From IMG/VR virus record IMGVR_UViG_3300032282_004021, positions 1 through 53,896 of that record: a DNA stretch of 53,896 nt; one strand, given 5' to 3'. The stretch's first letter is position 1. Each line of letters begins with the position of its first letter. The translations under genes were made by a program, and so were the position numbers. The notes under the pieces are model-generated. The model was not told where the DNA came from. It ran no database searches and saw nothing but the letters and a program-made list of their open reading frames with translations. This DNA comes from a virus (Duplodnaviria; Caudoviricetes). Of the stretch, positions 27,916-42,643 are shown piece by piece.

Positions 27916-28857
27916 GTGTTAAGTATAAATGATAAAAATAAGGTAGTAACTACCCTATACTCCGTATTGGGTACACATTCTACATTAAGAGGAAATGAAC
28001 TGGCTTTTTACTGCCCGTTTTGTCACCATCATAAACAAAAGTTACAGGTTAATACCGAAACTCAAAAGTGGCATTGTTGGACTTGTAATAGTGGCGGTAA
28101 AAAATTAACATCACTACTTCGTAAATTGGATGTTGATAAAAAAACAATCTCAATCATTCGTGAAATCTATGGTGATTCAAACTATAATCCGCAATCGGAT
28201 GATTCTGATGCTAAAGTATTTATAAATCTTCCAAAAGAATTTATATCATTAGCAGAAGAGCCAAACGGATTTAATCCTGAATATAAACAGGCTGTACACT
28301 ACTTAACTCAAAGAGGTATTGGATTAAAAGAAATTGTAAAATATTCCATTGGGTATTGTAAGGACGGAATTTACGCGAGGCGTATTATAGTTCCTTCTTA
28401 CAACTCTGATGGGTCTCTAAATTATTTTATTTCTCGTTCATATTACGCTGATGAAAAGATGAAATATAAAAACCCACCAATCAGTAAAAATATTATTTGT
28501 TTGGATTCACAAATTAATTGGAAAGAACCAATTATACTTTGTGAGGGAGTATTTGATGCTATTACAATTCGTAGAAACGCAATTCCATTACTCGGTAAAT
28601 TTCCATCAAAGAACTTAATTGAAAAGATATTTTTAAATGGTGTAACCGATATAATCATTTCATTGGATAACGATGCAGTCACCGAAGCACTACGGGCTTC
28701 CGAATGGTTAAGGAAGCAGGGTATTAATGTTAAGTTAATGATGATGCAAGATAAAGATGCAGCTGAAATGGGTTACGAAGCATTTTATGAAGAACTAAAG
28801 AAAACTAAAGAATTCTCTACGGAGGATTTATTATTAAATAAGATATTAAACTTATGA
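27916..28857 (+). CDS. dnaG: DNA primase (Zn finger + TOPRIM)
   Basis: CPFC...HCWTC, CEGVFDA, LDND; likely GTG start at 27916 after the promoter. Confidence 0.88.
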   Translation: MLSINDKNKVVTTLYSVLGTHSTLRGNELAFYCPFCHHHKQKLQVNTETQKWHCWTCNSGGKKLTSLLRKLDVDKKTISIIREIYGDSNYNPQSDDSDAKVFINLPKEFISLAEEPNGFNPEYKQAVHYLTQRGIGLKEIVKYSIGYCKDGIYARRIIVPSYNSDGSLNYFISRSYYADEKMKYKNPPISKNIICLDSQINWKEPIILCEGVFDAITIRRNAIPLLGKFPSKNLIEKIFLNGVTDIIISLDNDAVTEALRASEWLRKQGINVKLMMMQDKDAAEMGYEAFYEELKKTKEFSTEDLLLNKILNL

Positions 28858-31800
28858 GCTTAAAAAGAATATTTCACATTGCTGACATACATATTCGTAA
28901 TGTAAAACGACACAAAGAATATAGAAAAGTATTCCAAAAGATGTTTGAGGAAATACGTAAATATGATACGAAAGATTCAATTATATATTTAGCAGGCGAT
29001 ATTGCTCATGCTAAATTGGAAATGAGTCCAGAATTAGTTAGTGAGATTGTTTGGTTATTTACAGAATGTGCTAAAACATGTCCTACAATTCTTATAGCAG
29101 GTAACCACGATTGCAATATGAATAATTCGGATAGACTAGATGTACTTACTCCGATTGTTACAGCACTTAATTTAGATAATTTTATTTACTTAAAAGATAC
29201 ACAAGTTCATTCTATTGGTGATGTTGATTTTGCTGTATTCAGTATTTTTGACAACAAAGATAACTGGCCTAAAGCCGATACTCTAACTGGCAAAACAAAA
29301 ATTGCTCTATTTCACGGACCAGTTGATAACTCACAAACCGATATAGGCTATGTAGTTAGTAGCCGACATTTTACAACGGATATATTCGATGGTTATGATT
29401 TGGCTCTATTAGGTGATATACATAAACGTCAGGAGATGATTAGTCCTCAAGGATGTAAAGTAGTTTATGCAGGCTCCCTCATACAGCAGAACTTTGGCGA
29501 AACACTTGATAAGCACGGATTTTTAGTTTGGGATGTGGAAACAAAGGAATATGAGGCGATTGATATTCAAAACGATTATGGTTACTATACATTAGATATA
29601 GATAATGGTGTTGTACCGATTGTAACCGATATGCCAAAACATCCACGTCTTCGTGTTCGTATATCCAATACCGATACTGCCGATACAAAGCGTGTAATGA
29701 CCGAAATTAAAATGAGATATGGTGTAGATGATTTTACTATCATTCGTACCGATTCTCTTTCTAAATTGAAAACCGGCAATCGTGCTAACAAATTGGATTT
29801 TGAAGATATATCAGATATTAATTATCAAAATTCACTTATCAATGATTATGTGACAAGAATGATGCCTTTCGTAACCGAAGAAGACCTTAATGGGTTAGAA
29901 TCCATAAATAGAGATATTAATAGCCGGATAACGCAAGATGAAATTCAAAGAAACATATTTTGGAAACCGATAAAGTTTACATTTGAAAATATGTTCAGCT
30001 ATGGTGAAGCTAATACTATTGATTTCTCAAAAGTAGGTGGGTTGATGGGGTTATTTGCACCAAACGCTACAGGTAAATCCTCACTATTTGATGCTATATC
30101 ATTTTGTCTTTATGATAAATGTAGTAGGGCATTCAAAGCACAAAATATTCTAAACAATCGTAAAACAACATTCTATTGTGAATTACATTTTCAAATAAAT
30201 GGAATGGATTATCATATTCGTAGAGAAGCAAAGACCATTAACAAAGGTAAGAATGTTAAGGTTGATGTACAATTTTGGAAAACGGAAGGTGGTATAGCAG
30301 TTTCTCTTAATGGAACGGAAAGACGTGATACCAACACTGCTATTGAGCAATATGTTGGTACTTACGAAGATTTCATTCTAACTGCTTTAAGTTTGCAAGG
30401 TAACAATGCACTATTCATTGATAAATCTCAATCGGAAAGGAAAGAACTTCTTGCTCAATTTATGGGATTGAATGTATTTGATAAATTATATGAAACAGCA
30501 ACCGAAGATATTAAAGAGGTTAGTGTTCTTGTTAAAAACTTTAAGCGTACCGATTTCACATCTGAACTTGCCGATAAAGGCACTGAATTGAAATCAAAAC
30601 GTAAAGAATTAAAAGAATTACAAACCCTATTAGATAGTGCAAATGATGTTAAGAATGGTGTATTAGAAAATATACTTACACTTACAAAAGAATTGGCACC
30701 AATTGATTCTACATTAGATTTGGGTAAGTTAGAAAAAACAAAAACCGATATTGAAGGTAACACTCTAAATATACAAATTGAAAAAGCAAATAAGGTAAAT
30801 AAAATTGGGGAATATAATAATCTTTTATCGGAAATATCACAATCCATAGAAGAAAAGAAAACTATAAATAATAAATCCATTGAAGTAGCAAAAATTGAAT
30901 GGGATGAATATAAGCGTAATATAAGTGATACCGAACATCAGATTGAATTATTAGAACAATCAATAAATTCAAATAGAGAAAAACTTTCACACTTAGAAGA
31001 ACATGAGTACGACCCAAATTGTAACTTTTGTATGAATAATGTATTTGTAAAAGATGCTATCGCTACAAAAGAATTAGTTGAAAAACAAGAAACAGAATTA
31101 GATGAATTGGGTAATAAACATCAATCTCTAATTCAACAAGCAAGTTATATCGCAGATGTTGAAGACCAGTGGGATGAGTTAGTAGAATTAAAATCCAAAT
31201 ATCAAAAAGCAATTATTATTAAAGAAAAAGCTGATGTTGAATTAAAAGGATTACATACAAAAGAAGAATTATACTCAACTCAATTAGAAGGTGTTAAAGC
31301 GGATATTAAAAAGTATAACGATAATGAAGATACTATTAAACGTAATAAACAAATACAATCGGATATTCAGGGACTAGAAACTACTAAAGCCGGAATAGAT
31401 ACAAATATAAAAGAATTAGGTAAGAGTATAACCACACTCAATGGTTCTATTGGTTCTCTGGAGTCGTTTATAGAGGGTATTAAGAATAAGATGATGGAAG
31501 TTAAGGACTTGGAGGAAAAAGGACGCCTATACACCTATTATATAGATGCGGTTAAGCGTGATGGTATTCCCTACGAACTAATTTCTAAAGCACTACCCGT
31601 AATTGAAACCGAAGTAAATAATATTCTTGCACAGGTTGTAGATTTTGGATGTGTAATGGAAGTTGATGGTAAATCTATTAATGCAAAGATTGTTTATGAT
31701 GACCAAGAATGGCCATTGGAAATGTGTAGTGGTATGGAAAAGTTTGTAAGTGGACTTGCTATCCGAGTTGCATTGATTAATATATGTAATCTACCTCGTC

Positions 31801-31997
31801 CAAACTTCCTTGTCATTGATGAAGGGTTTGGTACATTGGACTCTGATAATCTTTCATCTCTCTTTATGATGATGCAATATCTTAAAACTCAATTTGATTT
31901 TATTTGGGTTATTTCTCACTTGGAACAAATGCGTGATATTGTTGATGGACTTATTGAAATTAAGAAAATAGATGGATTTAGTAAGATTGATTTTTAA
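28854..31997 (+). CDS. Fused SbcD-SbcC (Mre11-Rad50, T4 gp47-gp46-like) nuclease-ATPase
   Basis: ADIH, GD, GNHD, FHG, GDIH; Walker A APNATGKS, Q-loop, CNFC hook, CSGME signature, IDEGFGTLD, ISH. Confidence 0.92.
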   Translation: MSLKRIFHIADIHIRNVKRHKEYRKVFQKMFEEIRKYDTKDSIIYLAGDIAHAKLEMSPELVSEIVWLFTECAKTCPTILIAGNHDCNMNNSDRLDVLTPIVTALNLDNFIYLKDTQVHSIGDVDFAVFSIFDNKDNWPKADTLTGKTKIALFHGPVDNSQTDIGYVVSSRHFTTDIFDGYDLALLGDIHKRQEMISPQGCKVVYAGSLIQQNFGETLDKHGFLVWDVETKEYEAIDIQNDYGYYTLDIDNGVVPIVTDMPKHPRLRVRISNTDTADTKRVMTEIKMRYGVDDFTIIRTDSLSKLKTGNRANKLDFEDISDINYQNSLINDYVTRMMPFVTEEDLNGLESINRDINSRITQDEIQRNIFWKPIKFTFENMFSYGEANTIDFSKVGGLMGLFAPNATGKSSLFDAISFCLYDKCSRAFKAQNILNNRKTTFYCELHFQINGMDYHIRREAKTINKGKNVKVDVQFWKTEGGIAVSLNGTERRDTNTAIEQYVGTYEDFILTALSLQGNNALFIDKSQSERKELLAQFMGLNVFDKLYETATEDIKEVSVLVKNFKRTDFTSELADKGTELKSKRKELKELQTLLDSANDVKNGVLENILTLTKELAPIDSTLDLGKLEKTKTDIEGNTLNIQIEKANKVNKIGEYNNLLSEISQSIEEKKTINNKSIEVAKIEWDEYKRNISDTEHQIELLEQSINSNREKLSHLEEHEYDPNCNFCMNNVFVKDAIATKELVEKQETELDELGNKHQSLIQQASYIADVEDQWDELVELKSKYQKAIIIKEKADVELKGLHTKEELYSTQLEGVKADIKKYNDNEDTIKRNKQIQSDIQGLETTKAGIDTNIKELGKSITTLNGSIGSLESFIEGIKNKMMEVKDLEEKGRLYTYYIDAVKRDGIPYELISKALPVIETEVNNILAQVVDFGCVMEVDGKSINAKIVYDDQEWPLEMCSGMEKFVSGLAIRVALINICNLPRPNFLVIDEGFGTLDSDNLSSLFMMMQYLKTQFDFIWVISHLEQMRDIVDGLIEIKKIDGFSKIDF

Positions 31998-32157
31998 TAT
32001 CAATTTTAGTCACTTTACCAGTTATTGGTTTAGTTGTATTAATATGCTTTTTAATTAGATTTTCAACAAGAGAACCCATTTTAAACCCATGCTCTTCACA
32101 ATATTTTTTCAAAAGTATGTGTGTTTCTTTTTTTATTTGTAACATTGAATATTTCAT
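31978..32157 (-). CDS. 59-aa putative ribbon-helix-helix DNA-binding protein (absent from ORF track)
   Basis: MKYSMLQIKKETHILLKKYCEEHGFKMGSLVENLIKKHI...; has its own minus-strand late motif. Confidence 0.75.
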   Translation of the reverse strand: MKYSMLQIKKETHILLKKYCEEHGFKMGSLVENLIKKHINTTKPITGKVTKIDIKNQSY

Positions 32158-32190
32158 AACTCTTTAGTTTATTTTAGTTTTCTATATACA

Positions 32191-32230
32191 TATAAATATT
32201 GGATAGTTTATTTTTTTGAAGATATTTATA
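32191..32230. promoter_or_regulatory. Divergent pair of late promoter motifs
   Basis: ATATTTATA on the minus strand (32191-32199) and the plus strand (32222-32230). Confidence 0.65.
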
Positions 32231-32247
32231 GAAAACGACTATATTTA

Positions 32248-35109
32248 ATGGCAATTATTAAGAAAAGTTTATTTCCTCAAAATTTAGATAGGGTAGCTAC
32301 ATATATAATTGATACCGATGTAAATAGTAGGTATTTGAAAATATCACAATTAGGCGATACTTTTACTGGTGGTAAAAATGCTTTTCTTATTCAAGGTACT
32401 TATGAATTGGCACCAGGAAGTAGAATATGGATTGAAATAAAAGATGCAAAAGGAGATATAATTTATAATGAACCGGGTGAAGGTACTCCAAAAGAATACT
32501 ATGAAGGTAATTCAAAACCTGTAGCAGTTTATATATACGAAGATACTGCTTTTGGCCCTGCAACAATAACTATATTGGCCGAATTGGCTGAATATGAAAT
32601 TGATGGTAAAAAATATACTATACCAGAAGAATGGAAGGGCAGGCCTAATATGAAATGGCAAAAAGTTGTAAATGCACATCCGGAAATGGCCAATATAACG
32701 CCTATAAGATTTTATAAACGTCCAAAAGTAAACATTACTGAATTAGGGTTACCAATTTTTGAAAGAACTAAAACAACAATTAAAGTTTCTGGTTCAATAA
32801 GAGGTAGAGCAATATCTCCTGTTGCAGGTACAGTATATACCGGCCAAAGTGTAATATATGAATTGGAATCTATAAACCCTGCATCGGCTAGTTTTACTAA
32901 TGGTGTACATTTACCGGATTCACCTGCAACAATTATACCAGCAGCTTTAGTAGGTTTAGAAATAAATGTGGCCGGAATTTCGGGATCCAATGGGCAGAGA
33001 TTTTATGTAAGAGAAGGACAGCAATCACCCACCGAGCTGTATCAACCGCCACCACCTGATACTACAACTTACACATATTATACTACATTTAATTCAACCA
33101 TAACTGAATGGCTATCACAATATAAGATTCATACTTTAACGCCATTTGTAGTACCGCAGCAGTTGACAAATACAGTATTTAGTAAACCCTTCAGATTCTA
33201 TTTCAGTAAAGGGCAGAATTTAATACAAGATTTTGAATATGGTTCATTCACTGCATCATATGATACATTCATTTGGGCCGATACGGGAATATCATCATCA
33301 TATGCGAATATTAAAATTACGGATATGGAAACTTTTAGCGGAGATGTTTACCGAATAAAAGTTTTAGCAGATAGTAAAAGTGATTTACAAGGATATCGTC
33401 CACTTGAAGATATAGTTTTGGAAAATAATGAACTTTTACAAGAACCATATTATCTAAATACATTAAATAAAAAAACAGGAATATTTGATACAGAGCTTTT
33501 GACAGATTCGAACAATCCTGATCAGCAAAGATGGGTTATTGATACTTTAGCTACAACGGGTACTTCAACAATGGATTTAAATGCTAATGACGTAACTTTA
33601 GTACCTGATACTGATATTACTGGTTCAAATGGATTATTTAGATTTTATTATAATAAAAATCTTACATTTGAAAAAGCTACAGAGTATTCATTACGATTTA
33701 CACCTACGTTTGAAAGTATAACAAATCCAATAGGATATTTGGATATATATTTAACAGGATCGTGTTTCAATGATACTAATCCAAATATAGGATATGGTAA
33801 AAAAATAGGTACGCTAACTGATAGTACTTATAAAAAATATTCAGAACAAACTATAAACTTTTATCCGGATAATGATGGTACCGGTAGTGTTTCTTTTATA
33901 GTTAGAAATGGTAAATGGAAGTTAAAAGATATTAGTATACAACCATCACATCAAACGGCATTTTCACCAAATCAATATCAATTTATAACAAAACCACCCA
34001 TTCAAGTTGTAAGTGAATCATTTGATTTTAGATTTGATTTTTTTGATATTAATTATAATTATGTACCTATAAAAATTTATAAACAAGTACAATTTTTGGG
34101 TGGAAATGATTTACCTCAACGATTAATTGTATCTGCAAGTAGTTTATCTTTTAATACAATATATTCACCAACAATAACACCGCCAACGATAGATATTTAT
34201 TATGAAAAACAATTCTTAACAGATGATATTATATTCATAAGTACATCAAATGATAATACTGCTGGCGCTTATGACCAATATAACACATTCTTAAACCCTC
34301 CAGGTGCACCATCACCAGATACAACCATTTATCCTGGAAAACTTACTAATATACATCCGCAAGGAGCTGGTTTTGTAGGAACTTTAACTTGGGATAATTT
34401 CACAGGTTCAGTTAATGATCCTGCAAGATATACTAATAGATTAACTTATACAATTGTGTGTGGTCCGTTGAGTAAAACATTAACTATTAATAGAATTAAT
34501 GCACCGGTAACAACTACTACTACAACCACGACAACGACAACTACAACTACTAGCACTACAAGTACAACGACTACTGTAGCTCCTTCATATGCTGGTAGAT
34601 TATACGTTAGAAACTGGACACCATATTCTGGATTGAGATTGACTTCTGTTCTTGTAAATGGTTCTTCTCCAAGTTGGATATACCCAACAGGTCCAGGTGG
34701 AATATATTCTATTGGTCAGCAACATGGTATAGGCATTGGTAGTGGCGACGCTGTTAATTATAGTAATGCATCATATCTATCACCAACATCAATAAAATTT
34801 TATGATAGAACGAGTGGTTACCCAGGTGTAGAATATGATTACCCGGCCAATATTTCAGCGGGAACAGGTTCTATTCCGGGGTTAAATCAGACTTATACTT
34901 TAACTTTAAACTTTAATAATCCCGATCTTGTAACTCATTATTTAACTTTTAATACTACTTGTACAATGAACCCAGTTATTAGTGGTACACCTACAACAAC
35001 TGGTAGATTTATTCCGGCCGCATTGAATTCTACAAAAACGTATACGGTTACTACACCTGTTTCAGGAAATCCTAATATTGATATAATAATCTATAGCTTC
35101 AACACATAA
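32248..35109 (+). CDS. Putative virion structural protein with poly-Thr stalk
   Basis: Beta-rich, FTGGKNAFLIQG, TFSGDVYRIKV, Thr run at about aa 755-776, separate C-terminal domain. Confidence 0.7.
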   Translation: MAIIKKSLFPQNLDRVATYIIDTDVNSRYLKISQLGDTFTGGKNAFLIQGTYELAPGSRIWIEIKDAKGDIIYNEPGEGTPKEYYEGNSKPVAVYIYEDTAFGPATITILAELAEYEIDGKKYTIPEEWKGRPNMKWQKVVNAHPEMANITPIRFYKRPKVNITELGLPIFERTKTTIKVSGSIRGRAISPVAGTVYTGQSVIYELESINPASASFTNGVHLPDSPATIIPAALVGLEINVAGISGSNGQRFYVREGQQSPTELYQPPPPDTTTYTYYTTFNSTITEWLSQYKIHTLTPFVVPQQLTNTVFSKPFRFYFSKGQNLIQDFEYGSFTASYDTFIWADTGISSSYANIKITDMETFSGDVYRIKVLADSKSDLQGYRPLEDIVLENNELLQEPYYLNTLNKKTGIFDTELLTDSNNPDQQRWVIDTLATTGTSTMDLNANDVTLVPDTDITGSNGLFRFYYNKNLTFEKATEYSLRFTPTFESITNPIGYLDIYLTGSCFNDTNPNIGYGKKIGTLTDSTYKKYSEQTINFYPDNDGTGSVSFIVRNGKWKLKDISIQPSHQTAFSPNQYQFITKPPIQVVSESFDFRFDFFDINYNYVPIKIYKQVQFLGGNDLPQRLIVSASSLSFNTIYSPTITPPTIDIYYEKQFLTDDIIFISTSNDNTAGAYDQYNTFLNPPGAPSPDTTIYPGKLTNIHPQGAGFVGTLTWDNFTGSVNDPARYTNRLTYTIVCGPLSKTLTINRINAPVTTTTTTTTTTTTTTSTTSTTTTVAPSYAGRLYVRNWTPYSGLRLTSVLVNGSSPSWIYPTGPGGIYSIGQQHGIGIGSGDAVNYSNASYLSPTSIKFYDRTSGYPGVEYDYPANISAGTGSIPGLNQTYTLTLNFNNPDLVTHYLTFNTTCTMNPVISGTPTTTGRFIPAALNSTKTYTVTTPVSGNPNIDIIIYSFNT
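34510..34575 (+). repeat. Poly-Thr tract (T14-STTSTTTT)
   Basis: Encoded by mixed ACA/ACT/ACC/ACG codons. Confidence 0.9.
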
Positions 35110-35116
35110 TAAAATA

Positions 35117-36076
35117 ATGAAAAAGTTACAATATATTTGCGTTCAACCACGCCTTATTTACTATGCTTGGCAAGTCGAAGTAATGATAAATAATTTTATT
35201 CGTAATGGCATAAATCCAAACGATATTAATATACTTGTCGCGTGGAATCCAAATGATTTAACAAATTCAGAAGAAAACATAAAAGATTGGAAGAGGTTAT
35301 ATGAAAGATATTCCGATGTACGTTTTTTTGAATACGAAGATATAAGACAACTACCAATTCATTACATATCATCAGTACGGCCTAATATACTAAAACAACA
35401 TTTTCTAAAATATCCAGAATTATCAAATGAAGTATTTTTTTATCACGATTGTGATGTGGTATTTACTAAACCGATTGATTTTTCTGAATTACTAAATGAT
35501 ACTATTTGGTATTTAAGTGATACAAATTCATATATCAATTACGATTATATAAAATCAAAAGATTATGGAGTTTATGAAGAAATGTGTCGCATAGTCGGTA
35601 TAGATGAAGAATTACCAAAAAGATATAATGAAGCTTCAGGTGGCGCACAATATATAATGAAAAATTTAACATCGGAATATTGGGAAAAAGTTGAAAGAGA
35701 TAGTGAAGAATTATTCAAACAAATAACTGATAAAAATAATCGTATAAAACAACAAATACCATTCTATCATGAACTACAAATATGGTGTGCTGATATGTGG
35801 GCTGTACTTTGGAATGCTTGGTTATTTGGACATGAAACAAAAGTTGTTTCAGAATTAAACTTTTGTTGGGCTACCGATACAGTCGATATGTGGGATAAAT
35901 GTAATATATTTCATAACGCAGGCGTAACAAACGATTCAATTGGTTATTTTTATAAATCAAATTATATGAATAAACAACCATATAATATTAATATAAACAA
36001 TTTTGATGCAGCTTATTGTTCATACAAATATACTCAAGAGATTATAAAAACAATAGAGGTATCATGTCTAAAATAG
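35117..36076 (+). CDS. GT-A glycosyltransferase, SERGT1/HPAT (GT96/GT95)-like
   Basis: YYAWQ, YISSVRP, DCD (DxD), GGAQY, WCADMW, IFHNAG. Confidence 0.6.
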   Translation: MKKLQYICVQPRLIYYAWQVEVMINNFIRNGINPNDINILVAWNPNDLTNSEENIKDWKRLYERYSDVRFFEYEDIRQLPIHYISSVRPNILKQHFLKYPELSNEVFFYHDCDVVFTKPIDFSELLNDTIWYLSDTNSYINYDYIKSKDYGVYEEMCRIVGIDEELPKRYNEASGGAQYIMKNLTSEYWEKVERDSEELFKQITDKNNRIKQQIPFYHELQIWCADMWAVLWNAWLFGHETKVVSELNFCWATDTVDMWDKCNIFHNAGVTNDSIGYFYKSNYMNKQPYNININNFDAAYCSYKYTQEIIKTIEVSCLK

Positions 36077-36783
36077 GAATTACAATACTAGCAACTAATG
36101 CATACTTTGTTTTAGGAATACGATTCATAAAAAAATTTATGCATCATTATAAGGGTAATTCTGAAATAACTTTTTATTTCTTTTCAGATACCAATCCTTC
36201 CGATTATTTATCAGATAACATAAATGTAAAATACTACCACACAATACATAATAATTGGGTAGAAGGTACTAATGATAAATTTAATAGTATATTATCATTG
36301 AAAGAAGAAGATATTGATTACCTATACTATTTTGATGCTGATACAAATATAACTAAAGACTTTACAGAAGAATGGTTTATAGGTGATTTAGTAGGTGGTG
36401 AACACTATGGTAATCGTACTTGGTTAGCAAACGGTGCAGGGTTTGACCGGTTTGTGAAATCTAAAGCTTATGTACCAATAGATAGTCCTCTACCATACAC
36501 ATATCATTATGGAGCATTCTTTGGTGGTAAATGTGATACAGTTATAGATTTTTGTAAAACCCTTAAAGAATGGCAAATAGAAGATAAAAAAATACCTTAT
36601 GAGCCAGTTGTTAATGATGAAAGTTATATTAATGCATATTTTCATTACAATCCTCCTACCACCATACTTTGTGAAAAATTTGCATTTGATATAAGTGATA
36701 AAGGTGGTATAGGAGAAACCAGAGATACTAATCTGAATATTGATTATTACAAAAAAATATTATTAGATGGAAATATTTGGTAA
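36064..36783 (+). CDS. Glycosyltransferase family 6 (ABO/alpha-1,3-Gal(NAc)T-like)
   Basis: IGITILATNAY, FFSD, DYLYYFDAD, YGAFFGG, NDESYINAYF; likely start is ATG 36064. Confidence 0.85.
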   Translation: MSKIGITILATNAYFVLGIRFIKKFMHHYKGNSEITFYFFSDTNPSDYLSDNINVKYYHTIHNNWVEGTNDKFNSILSLKEEDIDYLYYFDADTNITKDFTEEWFIGDLVGGEHYGNRTWLANGAGFDRFVKSKAYVPIDSPLPYTYHYGAFFGGKCDTVIDFCKTLKEWQIEDKKIPYEPVVNDESYINAYFHYNPPTTILCEKFAFDISDKGGIGETRDTNLNIDYYKKILLDGNIW

Positions 36784-36807
36784 AATCAATAATTTTTTGT
36801 ATGTTGT
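36776..36807 (+). promoter_or_regulatory. Bacteroidota-type promoter variant
   Basis: TTTG(36776)-N20-TATGTTGT(36800). Confidence 0.4.
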
Positions 36808-36817
36808 GTAAAAAGAT

Positions 36818-36885
36818 CAGCACTGACAGCACTAAAGCTAAGAAAAGTTAAAAATAAAAAGTAAAAACTCCTAACTGACAGCACT
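36818..36885 (+). repeat. Intergenic direct repeats: ACTGACAGCACT x2, CAGCACT x3
   Basis: 12-mers at 36822 and 36874; extra CAGCACT at 36818. Confidence 0.8.
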
Positions 36886-36909
36886 TCTGTTTTTTATACT
36901 TTAAACTGA

Positions 36910-36918
36910 ATATTTATT
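36910..36918 (+). promoter_or_regulatory. Putative late promoter
   Basis: ATATTTATT upstream of 36937. Confidence 0.5.
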
Positions 36919-36936
36919 TAAGAAATATTTATATGT

Positions 36937-39900
36937 ATGAATTTAATAAATGAGGTAGATAAACCAACTGTAAAAAAGATAATTGTAATTTATTCTGGTA
37001 GATTTCAACCATTTCATAGAGGACACTATGCATCTTATCAAAAATTGGTATCAAAATTTGGTAAAGATAATGTATATATTGGAACTTCAAACGATACAAG
37101 CGGCCCCAAATCTCCTTTTAACTTTAAAGAAAAGAAGCAGGTAGCTACCACAATGTTTGGTATTCCTTCTAACCGATTCGTTCAAATCCAAAACCCATAT
37201 CAGCCAATTGAAATACTTAAAAAATTTGATGGTAAAACTACTCAATATATTGCAGCAGTTGGAGAAAAAGACGCAACACGACTTCATGGAAAATATTTTA
37301 AACCATACAAAGGCAAGCCAGGATATGGGTACGATGAAATAGGTTATGTATATGCGGTACCAGCTGAACCAAACCCAATATCTGGAACCGATGTTCGTAA
37401 AGGGCTTGGTAGTGGTAATGCGGAAACAAAAAAGAAATTCTTTTTAAAAGCATATCCTAAAATGGATAAAGATATATTCAAAATGATTACTACTAAAATA
37501 GGTAAACTAAATGAAGCCGGACCACTTCAGGGAGCAGGTATGGCAGTTGATTTCGGACCGAATCCACTATCACATAAAAAAGATGATGAGAAGGATGGTG
37601 TAACCGAAGATGGATTTCCAGGTGGAGTATTTACGGGATTAGTTTCACCCGGTGGATATATTAATGGAGCTCCACAACCAAAAGATGTAGCAAAGTTAAG
37701 TAAAAAAATTCATAAAAAAGATAATACTAAAACTAATAAGGATTATGTATATGATCCAATATCTGAAATAATTCACAAAATATTATTTGAGGAAGAAGCT
37801 CCAAATACTGTAATGGATAAAGAAATATCTTATAAAGCAACGGATGGTAGTGAAAAAAAGATTACAGTCCGAAATGCATTAAGATTATCAAAAGACCACC
37901 CTGCACATATACAAGCAAAAAAATTAACCGGAAAAGAAGAACCGAAAGCTGAAAAGCCAAAAGAAAAAGGTGAAAAAGATTCTAAAAAGGGAGCAAAAGA
38001 AATACCAGCCGAAAACCCAAAAGCTACTGAGCCAAAAGGGCCAGCTCCTATTAAACTAAGTGGTGCAGAACTAAAATCTGATGCTGAAAAATCTCCTGAA
38101 GAAAAACATCAAGAAAAATCCAAAATGGAATTGGATTCAAAAATGAAAGAGGTTTCACCGGAAGATGTAAAAGCCGGTAAAGAAATGAATGATACTAATT
38201 CGCCGGAAAGACAGGAGATGAAGAAAAACTCACAAAACTGGTTATCTAAAATGGGTAACAAAATGTGGGAAGGTGCAAAGAAGTGGGGTAATGAGAAAAA
38301 AGAAATGTTAGCCGGAACCGGAGCAGCTATAAAAACACTTGCATCAGGCGGAAAAGTAGGTAGCATAAAAGGAACAGATGGCAAATGGGTACACCATACG
38401 GATTTTAAAATCAAAAGTGAAGAACTAGATACTAAAACGGGTAAAAATAAAACTGTATGGAAAGATAAATCTGATTTAACACCCGAACAACAATCGTTAA
38501 AGAAAAAATCAGAACATGAAGACCACAAACAAAGACACGCACTAAAACATACCGCAAAGGATGTTGGATTATTAGCACTTTCAATGGTAGGTGCCGGTGC
38601 TATTGGTGGAGCAATAGGTGGTATGGTTACACATGGTGCAGCCGGAATAGTACATGGTGCCGCACATGGTATTACATCAATAATTGGTCATGGTGCTGCG
38701 GGGTTTGGTACTCATGTGGCCAAAGACATAGCAAAACATTCTGCATTTGAAGCAATGGGACTTGGTGGACATCATGCCGCCGGAGCAACAGCGGCAATGG
38801 GTGCAATCGGACATTTATTAGAAGGTGATGATGAACAAGAAGGACAATCACATGAAAAATTTGTAGATACACTTCTTAAAAAGACTATCCAAATAATGAT
38901 GGATAAGACCCTTAGTGATGAACAAATGTTAAGAGCGGTAGAAACATATCAAAAAGAAAGTGGTGATACTAATCTAAAAAGTTTAGCTAAAACAATAGAT
39001 GAATCAGCAATATCTAAATCAAAAGTTCAAAATATTGCAGACTTTGTAGGATATGCTACTAAGAAATTAAAACTCAAAGATAAACCAAAAATTAAACTCA
39101 TACTTGGACAAGATTATTCAAAACAAAATTCTACATTAGGTGGATATAGTCCAGATACAAAAGATATAGTTGTTGTTATACCAAATCGTATGACAGCTGA
39201 TATATGTCGTACCATTGGACATGAATTGGTACATCGTAAGCAAGATGAATTGGGGTTAATAAAAAATAGTAATACAGCAGGTACTACTGGTTCACCAATA
39301 GAAAATCAGGCAAATTCAGTAGCAGGAATACTACTTCGTGATTATGGCAAAATAAATAAAGAAATATATTCCGAAGGTAAAATTTTATTAGATGAAACAA
39401 GCTACATGTCTACAGATGGCGATGACCAACCGAATGGTGCATGGCTTCCAAAGGGCGCACAAAGAGTACTTGGAGCAGATGATGGTGTAAACAAATCGGA
39501 TTATTGGTTTCATAACGGAGGATATATTCAATTAGAATTTCCTGAAGCTGATAAAATATTAGGAGATGAAGATGAGAATCAGATATATGTTCAATATATA
39601 ACTAAAAATGTACCCCGTCAATCAGGCCCAAAGACTGTATTTAATAAAAACCCTGAAAAAGCAAAAATAATTTCTGAGATGGGTAAAGGTGATATTCATT
39701 TCAAAAATATATTTCAACATTGGAGAGATGGCGATGCTAAATTGAAACAAAAAATAGCAAATTTAGTTACCGGAAATAAATACGCAAAATCAAAAGAAAT
39801 TGTAAAAAATCTACTTGATTTGGATATAACCGATATTGAATGGGTTGAAGATGAAATTGGTATTACTCTGTTTGAAACTATAAAAAAAGTAGGAAGTAAA

Positions 39901-41796
39901 TATGTGGTTTATCCAAAAAAAGGTGGAAAGAGATTAGGAACACATGATTCATTAGTATCGGCAAAGAAGCAACTTTCAGCAATTGAAATAAACAAAGAGG
40001 ATATAAATGTTAATGTAAATCCAGGTGATGTAGTTTTAATGGGCAAATTCAAAAACAAACGTGTAAAAATAAAAGATATAGGTGAAGACCCACACGGTAT
40101 GCCAACTATAAATGGTAAACAAGCAACAACATTCCGAAAGGTTAATGAAGTATCACTTTTAGATAAATGGATTGATGATAATATTGAAACATACTTAAAA
40201 GAAGGCAATTTTGTAGCATTATCATTTGGTGAAGACCAATCATTTCGTTCACCATATCTGAAAAAATGGGAAGAATGGGATATGTGTGGAAAAGCATTAG
40301 CCGATATAATTGGATTTGAAGTTTATGGACATACTTCGGAGTCATTTAAAGAAAAGGGTGAAGGAAAAGTTCTACCAACAAATAATCCAACGGAAGAAAA
40401 CGGACCAGGTAAAAGATGGATGCACCCCTCAAAACCAAAAGAGTACGCAGAAGATAAAAAAGTAAAATGGGAAATGTACCCATTCAATTCCAGACCAGCT
40501 GCATATCAACCACCACCTGATATTGGAACGCAAGTTGATGTTTTCAAATACGATAAACCATCAGTAATAAAAGAGAATATTCAAGAATGGAATCAATTAC
40601 TATTAGAAGGTGGCGCATATGGACATATGTCACATCCATTTGATGATATGGATTTAACATTTGGACAACTTAAAGATATTATTACAAGGGCATTAGATGG
40701 TAATTTGGGTGTAGTAAGAGAAAAAACCGATGGACAGGCATTAGCAATAAGTTGGAAAAAAGGAAGATTAATTGCAGCACGTAATAAAGGGCATTTGGAA
40801 AACGCAGGAGCAAACGCAATGGGGATAAATGATGTAGCATCTAAATTTCAGGGACGTGGTGGACTTACTGATGCATATAATTACGCAATGCAAGACCTTA
40901 ACGCAGCAATAAGTGGTTTATCAAAGGGTCAACGTGATAAAATATTCAATGAAGGTAAATGCTTTATGAATATAGAAGTAATCTGGCCAACTTCTGTAAA
41001 TGTAATTCCTTATGGACAAGCTCTATTAATATTTCATAATACAACTTGTTACGATGAAAAGGGAACGGCAATAGGAGCTGACCAATCCGCAGCTAGAACA
41101 TTAGCAGGAATGATAAAACAAGTAAACGCAGATGTACAAAGTAAATATACAATTCAAGGCCCCCCAATAACTTCAATTCCAAAAAATGAGGATTTAAGTT
41201 CATTAAAGGGTGGGTATCTTTCAAAACTTTCAAAACTACAAAACGAATTTGGTTGTAATGATTCCGATACTATGGCAGTATATCATCAGCTTTGGTGGGA
41301 AAATTTTATAAATAAAAAAGCACCTGCAAAAGTTGACAAAATTACAAAAGATGCACTTATAAGAAGATGGGCATTCGGAGATAAATCTTTTAGATTAAAT
41401 ACTATATCAAACCCTGAATTACAAAAATGGGCAATTCAAAATGATAAAGTAAATGTTCAGAAACAACAAAAAGATAATATGCGTCCATTTGAAGAAATCT
41501 TTTTAGGAGTTGGTGCAGATGTACTTTCATTTGTAAGTTCGGTACTAACTGTACACCCTGATAAGGCTATTCGTAATATGAAGGATAGATTAAAATCAAC
41601 AGCAGATCAAGTTCGTAAAGCTGGGAGCCCTGCTCAAATACAAAAATTAAAATCAGAATTAGAAAGATTAAATAATTTAGGCGGAGTGGATAAGATAGTA
41701 GCATCCGAAGGTTTAGTATTCTTTTATGGTGGAAAGACTTACAAGTTGACCGGAACTTTTGCACCTCTAAATAAAATTATAAACATATTTTGGTAA
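36937..41796 (+). CDS. Multidomain protein: HxGH nucleotidyltransferase, Gly/Ala hydrophobic segment, HExxH peptidase-like domain, KxDG ligase-like domain
   Basis: GRFQPFHRGH...ISGT; GAIGGAIGG; GHELVHRKQ; GHMSHPFD, EKTDG, NIEV, EGLVF, YKLTG. Confidence 0.8.
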   Translation: MNLINEVDKPTVKKIIVIYSGRFQPFHRGHYASYQKLVSKFGKDNVYIGTSNDTSGPKSPFNFKEKKQVATTMFGIPSNRFVQIQNPYQPIEILKKFDGKTTQYIAAVGEKDATRLHGKYFKPYKGKPGYGYDEIGYVYAVPAEPNPISGTDVRKGLGSGNAETKKKFFLKAYPKMDKDIFKMITTKIGKLNEAGPLQGAGMAVDFGPNPLSHKKDDEKDGVTEDGFPGGVFTGLVSPGGYINGAPQPKDVAKLSKKIHKKDNTKTNKDYVYDPISEIIHKILFEEEAPNTVMDKEISYKATDGSEKKITVRNALRLSKDHPAHIQAKKLTGKEEPKAEKPKEKGEKDSKKGAKEIPAENPKATEPKGPAPIKLSGAELKSDAEKSPEEKHQEKSKMELDSKMKEVSPEDVKAGKEMNDTNSPERQEMKKNSQNWLSKMGNKMWEGAKKWGNEKKEMLAGTGAAIKTLASGGKVGSIKGTDGKWVHHTDFKIKSEELDTKTGKNKTVWKDKSDLTPEQQSLKKKSEHEDHKQRHALKHTAKDVGLLALSMVGAGAIGGAIGGMVTHGAAGIVHGAAHGITSIIGHGAAGFGTHVAKDIAKHSAFEAMGLGGHHAAGATAAMGAIGHLLEGDDEQEGQSHEKFVDTLLKKTIQIMMDKTLSDEQMLRAVETYQKESGDTNLKSLAKTIDESAISKSKVQNIADFVGYATKKLKLKDKPKIKLILGQDYSKQNSTLGGYSPDTKDIVVVIPNRMTADICRTIGHELVHRKQDELGLIKNSNTAGTTGSPIENQANSVAGILLRDYGKINKEIYSEGKILLDETSYMSTDGDDQPNGAWLPKGAQRVLGADDGVNKSDYWFHNGGYIQLEFPEADKILGDEDENQIYVQYITKNVPRQSGPKTVFNKNPEKAKIISEMGKGDIHFKNIFQHWRDGDAKLKQKIANLVTGNKYAKSKEIVKNLLDLDITDIEWVEDEIGITLFETIKKVGSKYVVYPKKGGKRLGTHDSLVSAKKQLSAIEINKEDINVNVNPGDVVLMGKFKNKRVKIKDIGEDPHGMPTINGKQATTFRKVNEVSLLDKWIDDNIETYLKEGNFVALSFGEDQSFRSPYLKKWEEWDMCGKALADIIGFEVYGHTSESFKEKGEGKVLPTNNPTEENGPGKRWMHPSKPKEYAEDKKVKWEMYPFNSRPAAYQPPPDIGTQVDVFKYDKPSVIKENIQEWNQLLLEGGAYGHMSHPFDDMDLTFGQLKDIITRALDGNLGVVREKTDGQALAISWKKGRLIAARNKGHLENAGANAMGINDVASKFQGRGGLTDAYNYAMQDLNAAISGLSKGQRDKIFNEGKCFMNIEVIWPTSVNVIPYGQALLIFHNTTCYDEKGTAIGADQSAARTLAGMIKQVNADVQSKYTIQGPPITSIPKNEDLSSLKGGYLSKLSKLQNEFGCNDSDTMAVYHQLWWENFINKKAPAKVDKITKDALIRRWAFGDKSFRLNTISNPELQKWAIQNDKVNVQKQQKDNMRPFEEIFLGVGADVLSFVSSVLTVHPDKAIRNMKDRLKSTADQVRKAGSPAQIQKLKSELERLNNLGGVDKIVASEGLVFFYGGKTYKLTGTFAPLNKIINIFW

Positions 41797-41836: not shown

Positions 41837-42643
41837 ATGATAATCTATAAGTGTACAAATAAAAAAACAGGAAAGGTTTATATAGGGCAAACTATAAAAT
41901 CTTTAGATAAAAGAATCACACAACACCATAAGGTTGCTAAAAAATCAAAAAGTAAATTTCATAAAGCATTAATTTCATATGGTTTTGAAAATTTTGATTG
42001 GGATATTCTAAAATCAGCCACATCTAAACAAGAATTAAATGAATTAGAAATTCATTATATAAATGAATATGATTCAATAAATTCAGGATACAATATGATA
42101 GAAGGTGGAACCGGAGGGTATAATGAATTTGCTGTTATAAAAAATAAATTAAAAATCGGCAAAAGTTGGGAAGAGATATATACACCAACTGGTTTAGAAA
42201 AAATGATTTTAAGTAAAGGAAAAAACTCAAAATTTTTAATAGACTATAATAAAAATTTATCAAAAGAAGAAAAAATAAGAAGAGCAAAAATAGGCAATGC
42301 AGCCAGAACACTTAATGGGTATAAACATTCGGAAACAACAAAACAAAAAATTTCAAATTCAAATAAGGGTAAAATAGTAACAATAGAACAACGAAAAAAA
42401 ATATCAGAAAAAACAAAAGAAGCAATGCAAAATGTAGATAAGGAATTGCTTGGAAAAAAATCAGTTGAAGCTCGTAAGCCATATTGGGATAAAAAACATA
42501 AAGAACAAAAGGAAAAAATAATAGAATTAAAAAACAAAAAAATCCCAATTAAAAAAATAATAGCAGAATTAAACATATCAACACCTACATATTATAAATT
42601 GTGGAATGATATAAAATGTAATATATATTTAAAACAGTTATAA
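41837..42643 (+). mobile_element. Free-standing GIY-YIG homing endonuclease with NUMOD3 and HTH
   Basis: IIYK...VYIGQT..R, E..YI, GYN, KHSETTKQKIS; ATATTTATT at 41825; very A-rich. Confidence 0.9.

Follow-up and report, generated by a model that had tools for sequence, protein, structure and literature searches.

The 53,896-nt stretch of viral DNA analyzed here (the window, from a record that is ~28% complete) likely encodes a cassette for cytoplasmic protein O-glycosylation, a reading to which we give a probability of roughly 0.7. When the window is compared with related loci and with named phages, the comparative genomics supports the view that the phage probably coats its own particle with sugar. 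The cassette comprises a gene for a 953-aa protein (p953), a GT-A-like gene and a GT6 gene, tightly packed in this order on the + strand in the ORF list of the window. In the mechanism we propose, the GT-A enzyme would place a first sugar on a Thr/Ser tract of p953 and the GT6 would then extend it.

The cassette and the Thr/Ser tract of p953

The features of the cassette are as follows.

32191..32198, + strand: TATAAATA, an octamer resembling a T4 late promoter, 50 nt 5' of the p953 start; meaning uncertain
32223..32230, + strand: TATTTATA, a recurrent octamer and candidate promoter or leader element, 18 nt 5' of the p953 ATG
32248..35109, + strand: p953, a 953-aa, beta-rich, putative structural protein of the tail-fibre family and the proposed acceptor
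34510..34575, + strand: Thr/Ser tract within p953, 22 residues (aa 755-776), proposed O-glycosylation site
35117..36076, + strand: GT-A enzyme of the phrog_4417 family, 319 aa, soluble, with a DxD motif, proposed initiating peptide O-glycosyltransferase
35447..35455, + strand: DxD motif of the GT-A enzyme (D111-C-D113), its conservation assessed in 51 sequences
36064..36783, + strand: GT6 glycosyltransferase, 239 aa, PF03414 match, proposed second-step (elongating) enzyme

All three genes that the preliminary description had called coupled were found as ORFs, with a gap of 7 nt between p953 and the GT-A gene and an overlap of 13 nt between the GT-A and GT6 genes. The start of GT6 was placed at ATG 36064 rather than at TTG 36016, since the alignments of 17 homologues begin at residue 1. 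The octamer TATTTATA lies 3-25 nt 5' of the + strand starts at 18630, 24046, 25982, 32248, 36937, 45633 and 52799 and is absent ahead of both glycosyltransferase genes (35117 and 36064), which fits a single transcription unit for p953, GT-A and GT6; we infer that they form one. The "late motif" previously placed ahead of p953 is weakly confirmed, as TATAAATA is present but shows no enrichment across the window (20 occurrences vs 16.6 expected). The three proteins would be made together, probably late in infection. Genes of DNA metabolism (fused SbcCD and primase) adjoin the cassette.

The 22-residue stalk claimed for the first gene was located at aa 755-776 of p953, with the composition T14-S-T2-S-T4. 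It is encoded by mixed ACN and AGY codons and is therefore no simple DNA repeat. Of all 41 ORFs in the window only p953 bears such a tract, the runner-up having 10 S/T in 15 residues. The protein itself has no match in Pfam or PHROG, and a structure search with its model returned generic beta-sandwich matches only. Sixty-three homologues were found. The N-terminal ~170 aa share 44-59% identity with proteins of 1000-1580 aa, mostly carriers of PF13884, and a scan of six homologues confirmed the tail-fibre domains Peptidase_S74 (chaperone of endosialidase) and Gp53-like_C in four of them, so that the N-terminal body is common to proteins with tail-fibre C-terminal modules. This family likeness, the one basis for placing p953 in the virion, suggests that it is a virion protein.

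The AF2 model of p953 is mostly beta, moderately confident over residues 10-751 and below pLDDT 50 from residue 753 onward. The tract begins directly after the last confident beta domain (741-751), and the model does not resolve the C-terminal ~177 residues. A pure T/S tract stands at the same junction (aa 758-830) in eight of the ten closest homologues. The tract would thus be an unstructured segment between the conserved body of p953 and its C-terminal ~177 residues, where its hydroxyls could be glycosylated. In fibre and carbohydrate-binding proteins, Thr/Ser stretches can also be simple flexible linkers, which counts against reading the tract as an acceptor.

Two glycosyltransferases

The GT-A enzyme matches the PHROG family phrog_4417, of unknown function, over nearly its full length (E 7e-67; residues 5-311 aligned to positions 2-290 of the 293-position profile). 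It has no Pfam family, the sole match at E ≤ 1 being an insignificant one to DUF2767. Clustering of enzymes of this type at 90% identity yields 3437 clusters, and at 50% identity 860; none of 150 representatives carries a Thr/Ser tract within the enzyme itself. The order of motifs named in the preliminary description holds: YYAWQ (15-19), Y83...R88-P89, D111-C-D113 and WCADMW (223-228) all exist and are conserved across an alignment of 51 sequences, in which W18, Y83, D113, M227 and W228 are invariant and conservation of Q19, D111 and W223 is 90% or higher. Transmembrane segments were found in neither the GT-A enzyme nor GT6.

When the AF2 model of the enzyme (pLDDT 97.5) is compared with solved structures, the matches include glycogenin (Z 15.1), LgtC (14.8), WbbM (14.6), the Skp1 alpha-galactosyltransferase (14.5), UGGT (14.2) and GlyE (13.1), with TarP reaching only 9.0. 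The modelled fold is closest to retaining GT8-type enzymes among solved structures. The match to glycogenin, LgtC, Skp1 alpha-galactosyltransferase and GlyE extends over the whole chain (215-241 residues, rmsd 3.5-3.8) and both sides have a DxD motif, whereas sequence identity is 8-12% and Pfam GT8 (Glyco_transf_8) gives no match to the enzyme at E ≤ 1. Glycogenin and GlyE act in the cytoplasm on proteins or protein-linked glycans, and GlyE is part of the pneumococcal serine-rich-repeat adhesin pathway. Protein-modifying enzymes (glycogenin, Skp1 alpha-galactosyltransferase, UGGT) and LOS or O-antigen enzymes (LgtC, WbbM) are tied within one Z unit (15.1-14.2), so the fold names no acceptor, and the structural comparison that had been suggested as a check comes out even.

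The same comparison bears on whether the two enzymes instead glycosylate hydroxymethylated bases of the phage DNA, a hypermodification that would protect it from restriction. DNA modification is a known activity of many phage GT-A enzymes (bioRxiv 10.1101/2023.12.21.572611), and the SbcCD and primase genes next to the cassette would suit such a role. The DNA-modifying GT-A enzymes described in that preprint are, however, TarP- or JGT-like and lie beside 5mYOX, methyltransferase or thymidylate-synthase-like genes, whereas the enzyme of the window is GT8/HPAT-like, with its Z of only 9.0 to TarP. A thymidylate-synthase-family gene was not found in the ~28% complete record (the control matched 10/14). 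DNA modification would also leave the linkage of enzyme and tract described below unexplained, and we regard it as highly improbable.

The third gene is a GT6, as had been claimed: it scores 49.8 bits against a cut-off of 25 for Pfam PF03414 (E 2.7e-13), and its best PDB sequence match is Bacteroides ovatus BoGT6a (E 6.4e-13). Its score for NCBIfam NF041524 (family 6 glucosyltransferase), 74.9 bits, is below the cut-off of 250. An alignment with BoGT6a and the ABO transferases places DAD at 91-93, the catalytic Glu at 186 and a YGAFFGG motif. E186, within N-D-E-S, aligns with the DES of the BoGT6a and ABO chains, and D91-A-D93 with ABO DVD and BoGT6a NAN; both the Glu and the DAD are kept in 18/18 members of the clade. 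According to PMC3516806, the catalytic Glu (BoGT6a E192) is conserved throughout known GT6, the metal motif is DxD in phage and vertebrate GT6 and N-x-N in most bacterial GT6, and W189 of BoGT6a corresponds to a Trp that contacts the acceptor in every structurally characterised GT6. The GT6 of the window thus has the Glu in common with BoGT6a and ABO and the DxD of the phage and vertebrate forms, but Val183 occupies the position of the acceptor-contact Trp (15 Val and 3 Cys among the 18 clade members), which argues for a non-canonical acceptor and not against GT6 membership. The capping of glycans with alpha-1,3-Gal/GalNAc that had been proposed for this enzyme is no more than a candidate function. 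Cyanophage P-SSM2 GT6 is only 29% identical to it. A further difference from BoGT6a, human ABO and P-SSM2 is the link to phrog_4417, with whose gene that of GT6 is either fused or coupled in translation; in 17 related loci the GT6 and GT-A genes overlap.

We infer the roles of the tract (acceptor) and of the 319-aa GT-A enzyme (initiator), as well as the identity of the sugars that the cassette uses. The soluble enzyme, with its retaining-type GT8/HPAT-like fold, would use a nucleotide sugar as donor to attach the first sugar to hydroxyls of the tract, and GT6, its DxD and catalytic Glu intact, would then add a second, alpha-linked hexose. The outcome would be a stiff, hydrophilic, mucin-like stalk on the virion.

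Linkage of enzyme and tract in related phages

Synteny in related phages, which had been named as a check, agrees with this proposal. We fetched 80 viral loci with the enzyme, 77 of which have an upstream ORF, and scored a tract as at least 11 S/T in 15 residues. The directly upstream ORF carries a tract in 60 of these 77 loci, which are related phages and not independent samples (65/77 when the next gene upstream is included), compared with 18/781 other ORFs and 1/75 downstream ORFs. The statistical linkage persists when duplicates are removed, at 50/65 upstream ORFs vs a background of 16/669 (Fisher 1e-49) and, when only proteins of 300 aa or more are counted, at 45/49 vs 11/161. Twelve of the 77 loci have no tract within two upstream genes, including two (L049 and L050) whose neighbouring genes most resemble those of the window.

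The gene downstream of the enzyme is variable. It is a GT6 in 17/75 loci, and the other partners include FkbM and other methyltransferases, GT2, Fringe-like, Gly_transf_sug and radical SAM/SPASM proteins; these partners are glycan-tailoring enzymes. Fusions to the enzyme, among 85 long representatives, include those with Glyco_transf_7C (12), GT2 (8), GT6 (3), GT25 (2) and GT29 (1).

Each of the 13 named phages that were examined has Thr-rich tracts on proteins encoded within 3 kb of the enzyme, whether capsid, tail-tube or small structural ones. In phiFL1A the tags stand at the C-termini of capsid and tail tube, in Lactococcus phage 1706 the capsid and the major structural protein both end in T9-10-HHD, and in Lactobacillus phage iLp84 T7-SK ends the capsid and a tail protein; the tract of Chryseobacterium phage MA9V-3 is internal. 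The enzyme gene is inside the head-tail block in phiFL1A, 1706, iLp84, TPWB06, phiCTP1 and bIL285. Homologues of the phiFL1A tail tube from enzyme-less phages end in a run of at least four Thr in 0/5 cases, so that the tail-tube tag occurs in 2/2 phages with the enzyme vs 0/5 without it. No GT2 or GT4 domain was found in five complete small siphophage genomes that have the enzyme (controls matched 14/14), and there the enzyme appears to act alone, as expected of an initiating enzyme.

These comparisons bear on two further explanations. Both enzymes might remodel envelope glycans of the host (LPS/LOS, capsule or teichoic acid), for example to block superinfection, with the Thr tract a mere linker. 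LgtC (Z 14.8) and WbbM (Z 14.6) are indeed tied with the best solved matches, and characterised bacterial GT6 enzymes make O-antigen-type blood-group structures (PMC3516806). This explanation leaves unaccounted for the enrichment of tracts directly upstream, the T-tags carried by capsid and tail-tube proteins that are not homologous, and the contrast between phages with and without the enzyme; the enzyme gene of siphophages, moreover, sits within the head-tail structural block, and membrane segments are absent from both enzymes. We consider it distinctly unlikely. It is also unlikely that enzyme and tract co-occur merely as accessory elements of fast-evolving fibre or structural modules, the true substrate lying elsewhere (a host protein or small molecule, for instance). 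The 12/77 loci without a nearby tract, the common ancestry among related loci and the wide variation of partner genes speak for this, but the siphophage tags are on core capsid and tail-tube proteins rather than on accessory fibre genes, enzyme-less homologues are untagged, and tracts are rare in the background of the same loci (16/669 ORFs; 11/161 at ≥300 aa). Each comparative test that was run (synteny, the 13/13 phages, presence and absence, GT-GT fusions) supports the core idea of a phage that glycosylates one of its structural proteins through an initial enzyme and a second one that varies; the interpretation as a whole is partly supported.

Relation to known glycosylation systems

The preliminary description had likened the GT-A enzyme to the plant and algal families GT95 (HPAT) and GT96. 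HPATs are hydroxyproline O-arabinosyltransferases, and SGT1 of GT96 is a peptidyl-serine alpha-galactosyltransferase. In the Atlas, its model reaches TM 0.73 over 285-287 of 319 residues to two eukaryotic PF23452 clusters, with predicted models on both sides; the two clusters are plant/green-algal and 99-100% PF23452 HPAT. No label is more frequent than HPAT among the named Atlas clusters closest to it, and 20 of the nearest 30 are in the PF23452-labelled set, the label standing on 10% of members in the best such cluster. The HPAT profile PF23452 (cut-off 23.9 bits) nevertheless gives no match to the enzyme at E ≤ 1, nothing in the record at E ≤ 10 (control genomes were likewise without a match), 0/85 matches to long homologues at E ≤ 0.01 and a single match, at E 0.23, among 51 short homologues. 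No solved GT95 structure is among the PDB search matches. Membership of HPAT/GT95 is rejected, as the profile fails despite the TM of 0.73, and what stands of the parallel is a distant likeness. PMC8012813 describes HPATs as Golgi type II membrane proteins that add the first sugar to a repetitive hydroxyl-rich peptide, and GT95 as related to GT96. This initiating action of HPAT/SGT1 on a hydroxyl-rich repeat parallels the role proposed for the phage enzyme, which is by contrast soluble and cytoplasmic and would act on Thr/Ser rather than Hyp.

Virion glycosylation is also reportedly a property of mycobacteriophages (Freeman et al., Cell Host Microbe, 2023). There, as in the window with p953, GT-A and GT6, the phage glycosyltransferases are encoded with structural genes. 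According to PMC12619734, glycans sit at the C-termini of mycobacteriophage capsid and tail-tube subunits, a position mirrored by the T-tags with which capsid and tail-tube proteins end in phiFL1A, 1706 and iLp84. The systems differ in enzyme family (here phrog_4417, with no Pfam family), in hosts (here Bacillota, Bacteroidota-type and aquatic phages), in the proposed acceptor, a pure poly-Thr/Ser tract that in the window forms a linker inside the fibre instead of a tag at the C-terminus, and in the GT6 second step proposed here.

We tentatively suggest, as a possibility short of an even chance, that the phage family is the counterpart of plant and green-algal HPAT/SGT1, having common ancestry with the glycosylators of plant cell-wall proteins. 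It would read a portable poly-Thr "glyco-tag" that phages attach to whichever virion protein is exposed, be it capsid, tail tube or fibre, while interchangeable enzymes of the second step (in the window a GT6 whose acceptor site is remodelled) would diversify the glycan. If this is true, mucin-like coats would be common, and so far unseen, in tailed phages from the dairy and gut phages of Bacillota to aquatic myophages.

A candidate virion-glycosylation cassette

The three genes are predicted from sequence to encode a pathway by which the phage O-glycosylates one of its own structural proteins through an initiating enzyme and a second step, a reading to which we give a probability of roughly 0.7. 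The record is estimated to be about 28% complete, has a GC content of about 31% and bears almost all of its genes on the + strand. These genes include a baseplate wedge protein, large terminase, portal and primase, together with a fused SbcD-SbcC nuclease and tail-fibre-like proteins; on the basis of the baseplate, terminase, portal and fibre genes, the window is part of a large tailed phage whose baseplate is of the contractile-tail type. A nucleotide search against named phages gave a sole match of 85 nt, to Chryseobacterium phage MA9V-3. All three cassette ORFs of the preliminary description are present, in the following setting:

28854-31997, + strand: SbcD-SbcC fusion, one 1047-aa ORF with an SbcD/Mre11-type phosphoesterase (residues 5-191) and an SbcC/Rad50-type ATPase (residues 376-1046)
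31978-32157, - strand: Arc-like repressor ORF, 59 aa (phrog_3180, E 1.6e-6)
32248-35109, + strand: p953, the 953-aa proposed acceptor
35117-36076, + strand: phrog_4417 enzyme, the 319-aa proposed initiating glycosyltransferase, 7 nt after p953
ATG at 36064, + strand: GT6, the 239-aa proposed second-step enzyme, overlapping the 319-aa ORF by 13 nt
36937-41796, + strand: 1619-aa protein directly 3' of GT6, with a cytidylyltransferase-like N-terminal domain (residues 18-155)
41837-42643, + strand: GIY-YIG homing endonuclease gene (phrog_314/7168)
44001-45608, + strand: large terminase gene, a few genes downstream of the endonuclease gene

The GT6 start is placed at ATG 36064, to which 17 homologues align from their own first residue. 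SbcD and SbcC are separate genes as a rule; the fused gene is found with 81-86% identity in three related loci (L048-L050). The Arc-like ORF, between the nuclease gene and p953, is the sole clear minus-strand gene nearby. The 1619-aa protein has long charged low-complexity stretches, and its segment 692-837 recurs as stand-alone proteins of 260-290 aa in other loci; in L049 and L050, which have no GT6, a 1682-aa homologue (60% identical) lies directly 3' of the GT-A gene.

The cassette had been described as preceded by a late motif. This sequence, TATAAATA, does occur at 32191, but the octamer shows no enrichment across the window and is at most a weak candidate for a late signal. A different octamer recurs shortly before gene starts:

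18610, 24015, 25969, 32223, 36926, 45623 and 52784 (also 48555, 27211 and 4715), + strand: TATTTATA, with seven gene starts 3-25 nt downstream

It precedes p953 and the gene after GT6 and is absent before both glycosyltransferase genes, a placement that would fit a single transcription unit for the cassette. The genes behind it are mostly large and structural-looking, and most of its leaders have no evident Shine-Dalgarno sequence. One possible role for it is as a promoter or leader element of a phage whose host is of Bacteroidota type. Another motif, TTTTCGTATATT-like, lies upstream of the starts at 1522 and 2470, with similar sequences upstream of 11850 and 41837. Scans of 31900-37100 for sigma-70 promoters and terminators gave counts not above those of shuffled sequence.

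The proposed acceptor and its two enzymes

The Thr/Ser stalk of 22 residues noted earlier in p953 is borne out: it occupies residues 755-776 (T14-S-T2-S-T4), is written in mixed codons and has no counterpart in any other of the window's 41 ORFs. Neither a Pfam nor a PHROG family matched p953, and a single-sequence search of the PDB returned nothing significant. Over its first ~170 residues it shares 44-59% identity with proteins of 1000-1580 aa, most of them with PF13884; among six scanned homologues, three proved to carry Peptidase_S74 (chaperone of endosialidase) and a further one the tail-fibre domain Gp53-like_C. The AF2 model (pLDDT 64) consists almost entirely of beta structure, with moderate confidence to residue 751 and low confidence from 753, so that the tract starts at the end of the last modelled domain. 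Of the ten nearest homologues, eight have a pure T/S tract at the corresponding point (aa 758-830). A Foldseek search of the model gave generic beta-sandwich strings (S-layer proteins, alpha-2-macroglobulin, CBMs) with TM at most 0.14, and no fibre fold can therefore be named. We read p953, from its sequence relatives, as a probable member of a tail-fibre family whose distal part, beyond a Thr/Ser stalk, would be exchangeable, and infer that it is part of the phage particle.

The second protein belongs to phrog_4417 (E 7e-67), a family of unknown function that comprises 3437 clusters at 90% identity, all labelled hypothetical, and 860 at 50%. The four motifs picked out in the preliminary description are conserved over a 51-sequence alignment; no membrane segment was found in the enzyme. 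Its AF2 model (pLDDT 97.5) has a GT-A fold that is nearest, among solved structures, to retaining GT8-type enzymes, with Z scores of 15.1 for glycogenin, 14.8 for LgtC, 14.6 for WbbM, 14.5 for Skp1 alpha-GalT, 14.2 for UGGT, 13.1 for GlyE and 12.6 for GT6. A best match to a DNA- or LPS-modifying enzyme had been named as evidence against virion glycosylation; protein-modifying enzymes and LgtC/WbbM are tied at the top, so the fold does not separate protein from glycan acceptors and points neither towards nor away from such an enzyme. A single-sequence search of the PDB found nothing significant. When the enzyme alignment was used as a profile against the PDB, the only hits were TAL-effector repeats, rejected as spurious because their scores sum one 30-residue motif.

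The suggested parallel with GT95 holds, between predicted models, as a distant likeness, which may extend to GT96. The ESM Atlas model of the enzyme superposes on predicted models of plant and green-algal PF23452 (HPAT, GT95) proteins with a TM of 0.73 over 285-287 residues, and HPAT is the most frequent label among the nearest named ESM Atlas clusters. However, the HPAT profile (HMMER) matched neither the 319-aa enzyme nor its relatives, and a PF23452 search of the window record was silent, as were the control genomes; the likeness is probably real but distant, and is not membership.

That the enzymes instead make a DNA hypermodification is highly improbable. Known DNA-hypermodifying GT-A enzymes are, in the accessible part of bioRxiv 10.1101/2023.12.21.572611, TarP/JGT-like and encoded beside other neighbours, namely 5mYOX or thymidylate-synthase-like genes, and no thymidylate-synthase-family gene was found in the window record, itself partial.

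The third protein is a GT6, as proposed: it scores above the Pfam cut-off, and its DAD, YGAFFGG and catalytic Glu line up with BoGT6a and the ABO transferases. The displayed ABO chains read M-G-A-FFGG where the window GT6 has Y-G-A-FFGG, at positions that we take from ABO biochemistry to be donor-discriminating, which by analogy suggests a hexose rather than a HexNAc donor. Along with the catalytic Glu it keeps DxD, as do phage and vertebrate GT6 forms and unlike the NxN of most bacterial forms (accessible text of PMC3516806). According to the same portion of that source, one Trp touches the acceptor in all characterised GT6 structures; this position is Val in the window GT6 and Val or Cys in 18 of 18 clade members, and from this replacement we predict an acceptor of non-canonical type, as a peptide-linked sugar would be. 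Cyanophage GT6 proteins (e.g. P-SSM2) are just 29% identical to it, and no cyanophage was found among the 77 records with a phrog_4417 enzyme homologue.

Linkage of the enzyme to Thr/Ser tracts

Eighty viral loci with the enzyme were fetched, 77 of which have an upstream ORF, and a tract was taken to be 11 or more S/T within 15 residues. The directly upstream ORF carries a tract in 60 of the 77 loci (65 when the next gene up is counted), extending the synteny to related phages, compared with 18 of 781 other ORFs and one of 75 downstream ORFs. After deduplication the figures are 50/65 upstream and 16/669 in the background (Fisher 1e-49, a statistic over loci of shared kinship), and 45/49 and 11/161 when only proteins of 300 aa or more are counted. 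BLAST groups the upstream proteins, 71-2231 aa long, into 19 clusters. The enzyme itself holds no tract in any of 150 representatives. Remodelling of the host envelope, which would agree with the LgtC and WbbM structural matches, is at odds with this linkage, and we consider it decidedly unlikely.

Because the fetched loci are related to one another, 13 named phages, taken from the 77 records with an enzyme homologue, were also examined. In every one of the 13, proteins encoded within 3 kb of the enzyme carry Thr-rich tracts; in nine the directly upstream protein has at least 8 S/T in 10 residues, and four (Planchet, phiCTP1, SAC12B and LP65) have lower-density Thr repeats. Thr tags stand at the capsid and tail-tube C-termini of phiFL1A, the capsid and major structural protein of Lactococcus phage 1706 both end T9-10-HHD, and the capsid and a tail protein of iLp84 end T7-SK. 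As the tract carriers are mutually non-homologous, the link is not one inherited gene pair. Three named-phage loci place the tagged proteins as follows:

L003 (Lactococcus phage 1706), 2468-4528 and 5238-5975: capsid/protease fusion and major structural (tail) protein
L085 (Staphylococcus phage PG-2021_68), 2165-2924: major tail protein region
L086 (Arcanobacterium phage TPWB06), 2164-2926: major tail protein region

Orf50 of Lactococcus phage bIL285 ends T9-R-H-D, and the residues after the Thr run that it has in common with 1706 may be part of a recognition signal. The major tail protein of PG-2021_68 and TPWB06 ends T9-P; an ORF in another frame overlaps its 3' end and encodes more long Thr tracts, which looks like a possible frameshift extension that would give a fraction of tail-tube subunits further acceptor tract.

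Homologues of the phiFL1A tail-tube protein are found in many phages, and a small sample of seven records was picked by hand among the 60 listed of 76 with such a homologue. The enzyme is absent from the whole records of phiGBSVK-C, Javan505, Javan311, cIP1 and phiJL-1; there the protein ends at or just past a conserved PGE..G motif, with no Thr run of at least 4 at its end in any of the five. Both records with the enzyme, phiFL1A and Lacticaseibacillus R3.3, have T-tags.

Plain Thr/Ser linkers exist, and 12 of the 77 loci lack a nearby tract, among them L049 and L050, whose neighbouring genes are closest to those of the window; both facts count against virion glycosylation. The latter would agree with enzyme and tract being co-located by chance as accessory genes, an explanation that the tail-tube contrast weakens, as does the occurrence of tags on core proteins of capsid and tube, and which we regard as unlikely. 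For the proposed glycosylation pathway, the linkage, as the principal result, and the presence/absence contrast lend support, while the acceptor and sugars stay predictions.

Putative tailoring partners and implications

The gene 3' of the enzyme is GT6 in 17 of 75 loci, of which 15 have the tract in the directly upstream gene and the other two one gene further up. Elsewhere this position holds methyltransferases (FkbM, Methyltransf_23/24), GT2, Fringe-like, Gly_transf_sug or radical SAM/SPASM genes, and several downstream-gene clusters have no family. Ninety of 150 enzyme representatives exceed 360 aa, and the 85 scanned for fusions include partners from Glyco_transf_7C (12), GT2 (8), GT6 (3), GT25 (2), GT29, radical SAM and methyltransferase families (one each). 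No GT2/GT4 domains were found in five complete siphophage genomes with the enzyme. Such variation in the tailoring genes around an unchanging enzyme is what one would predict if the enzyme initiates and later steps diversify the glycan. The radical SAM partner is placed as follows:

L033, 8954-9985, and L035 (fetched enzyme loci): radical SAM/SPASM enzyme directly 3' of the phrog_4417 enzyme, fused to it in the representative P0128

This hints at a modification of the same sugar or tract other than glycosyl transfer.

The closest known kind is the virion glycosylation of mycobacteriophages, for which particle glycosylation is shown experimentally (accessible text of PMC12619734); no other phages were found in the literature searched. 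That literature, mostly outside subscription journals, yielded nothing on the phrog_4417 family or on poly-Thr tags as phage glycosylation sites, and, in keeping with the preliminary description, no case pairing GT6 with such an enzyme. The accessible parts of a Lactobacillus brevis phage proteome paper (PMC6563214) and a wine-phage paper (PMC7698478) contain nothing on glycosylation of these proteins, and the survey of low-complexity sequences in PMC6821194 leaves phage poly-Thr tags aside. What the window adds is the putative GT6 second step, GT6 fusions to the first enzyme and the altered GT6 acceptor site.

If the reading is true, sugar-coated capsids, tail tubes and fibres would be common among phages, including those of lactic acid bacteria, enterococci and staphylococci, with relevance to dairy fermentation and phage therapy. 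Such a coat could influence how phages are recognised by the immune system, how stable they are, how they adhere to mucus and which hosts they infect. Glyco-engineering could make use of a soluble enzyme that comes with a short, portable acceptor tag, a large hypothetical family would gain a function, and the plant HPAT/SGT1 enzymes would have their first relatives in prokaryote viruses.
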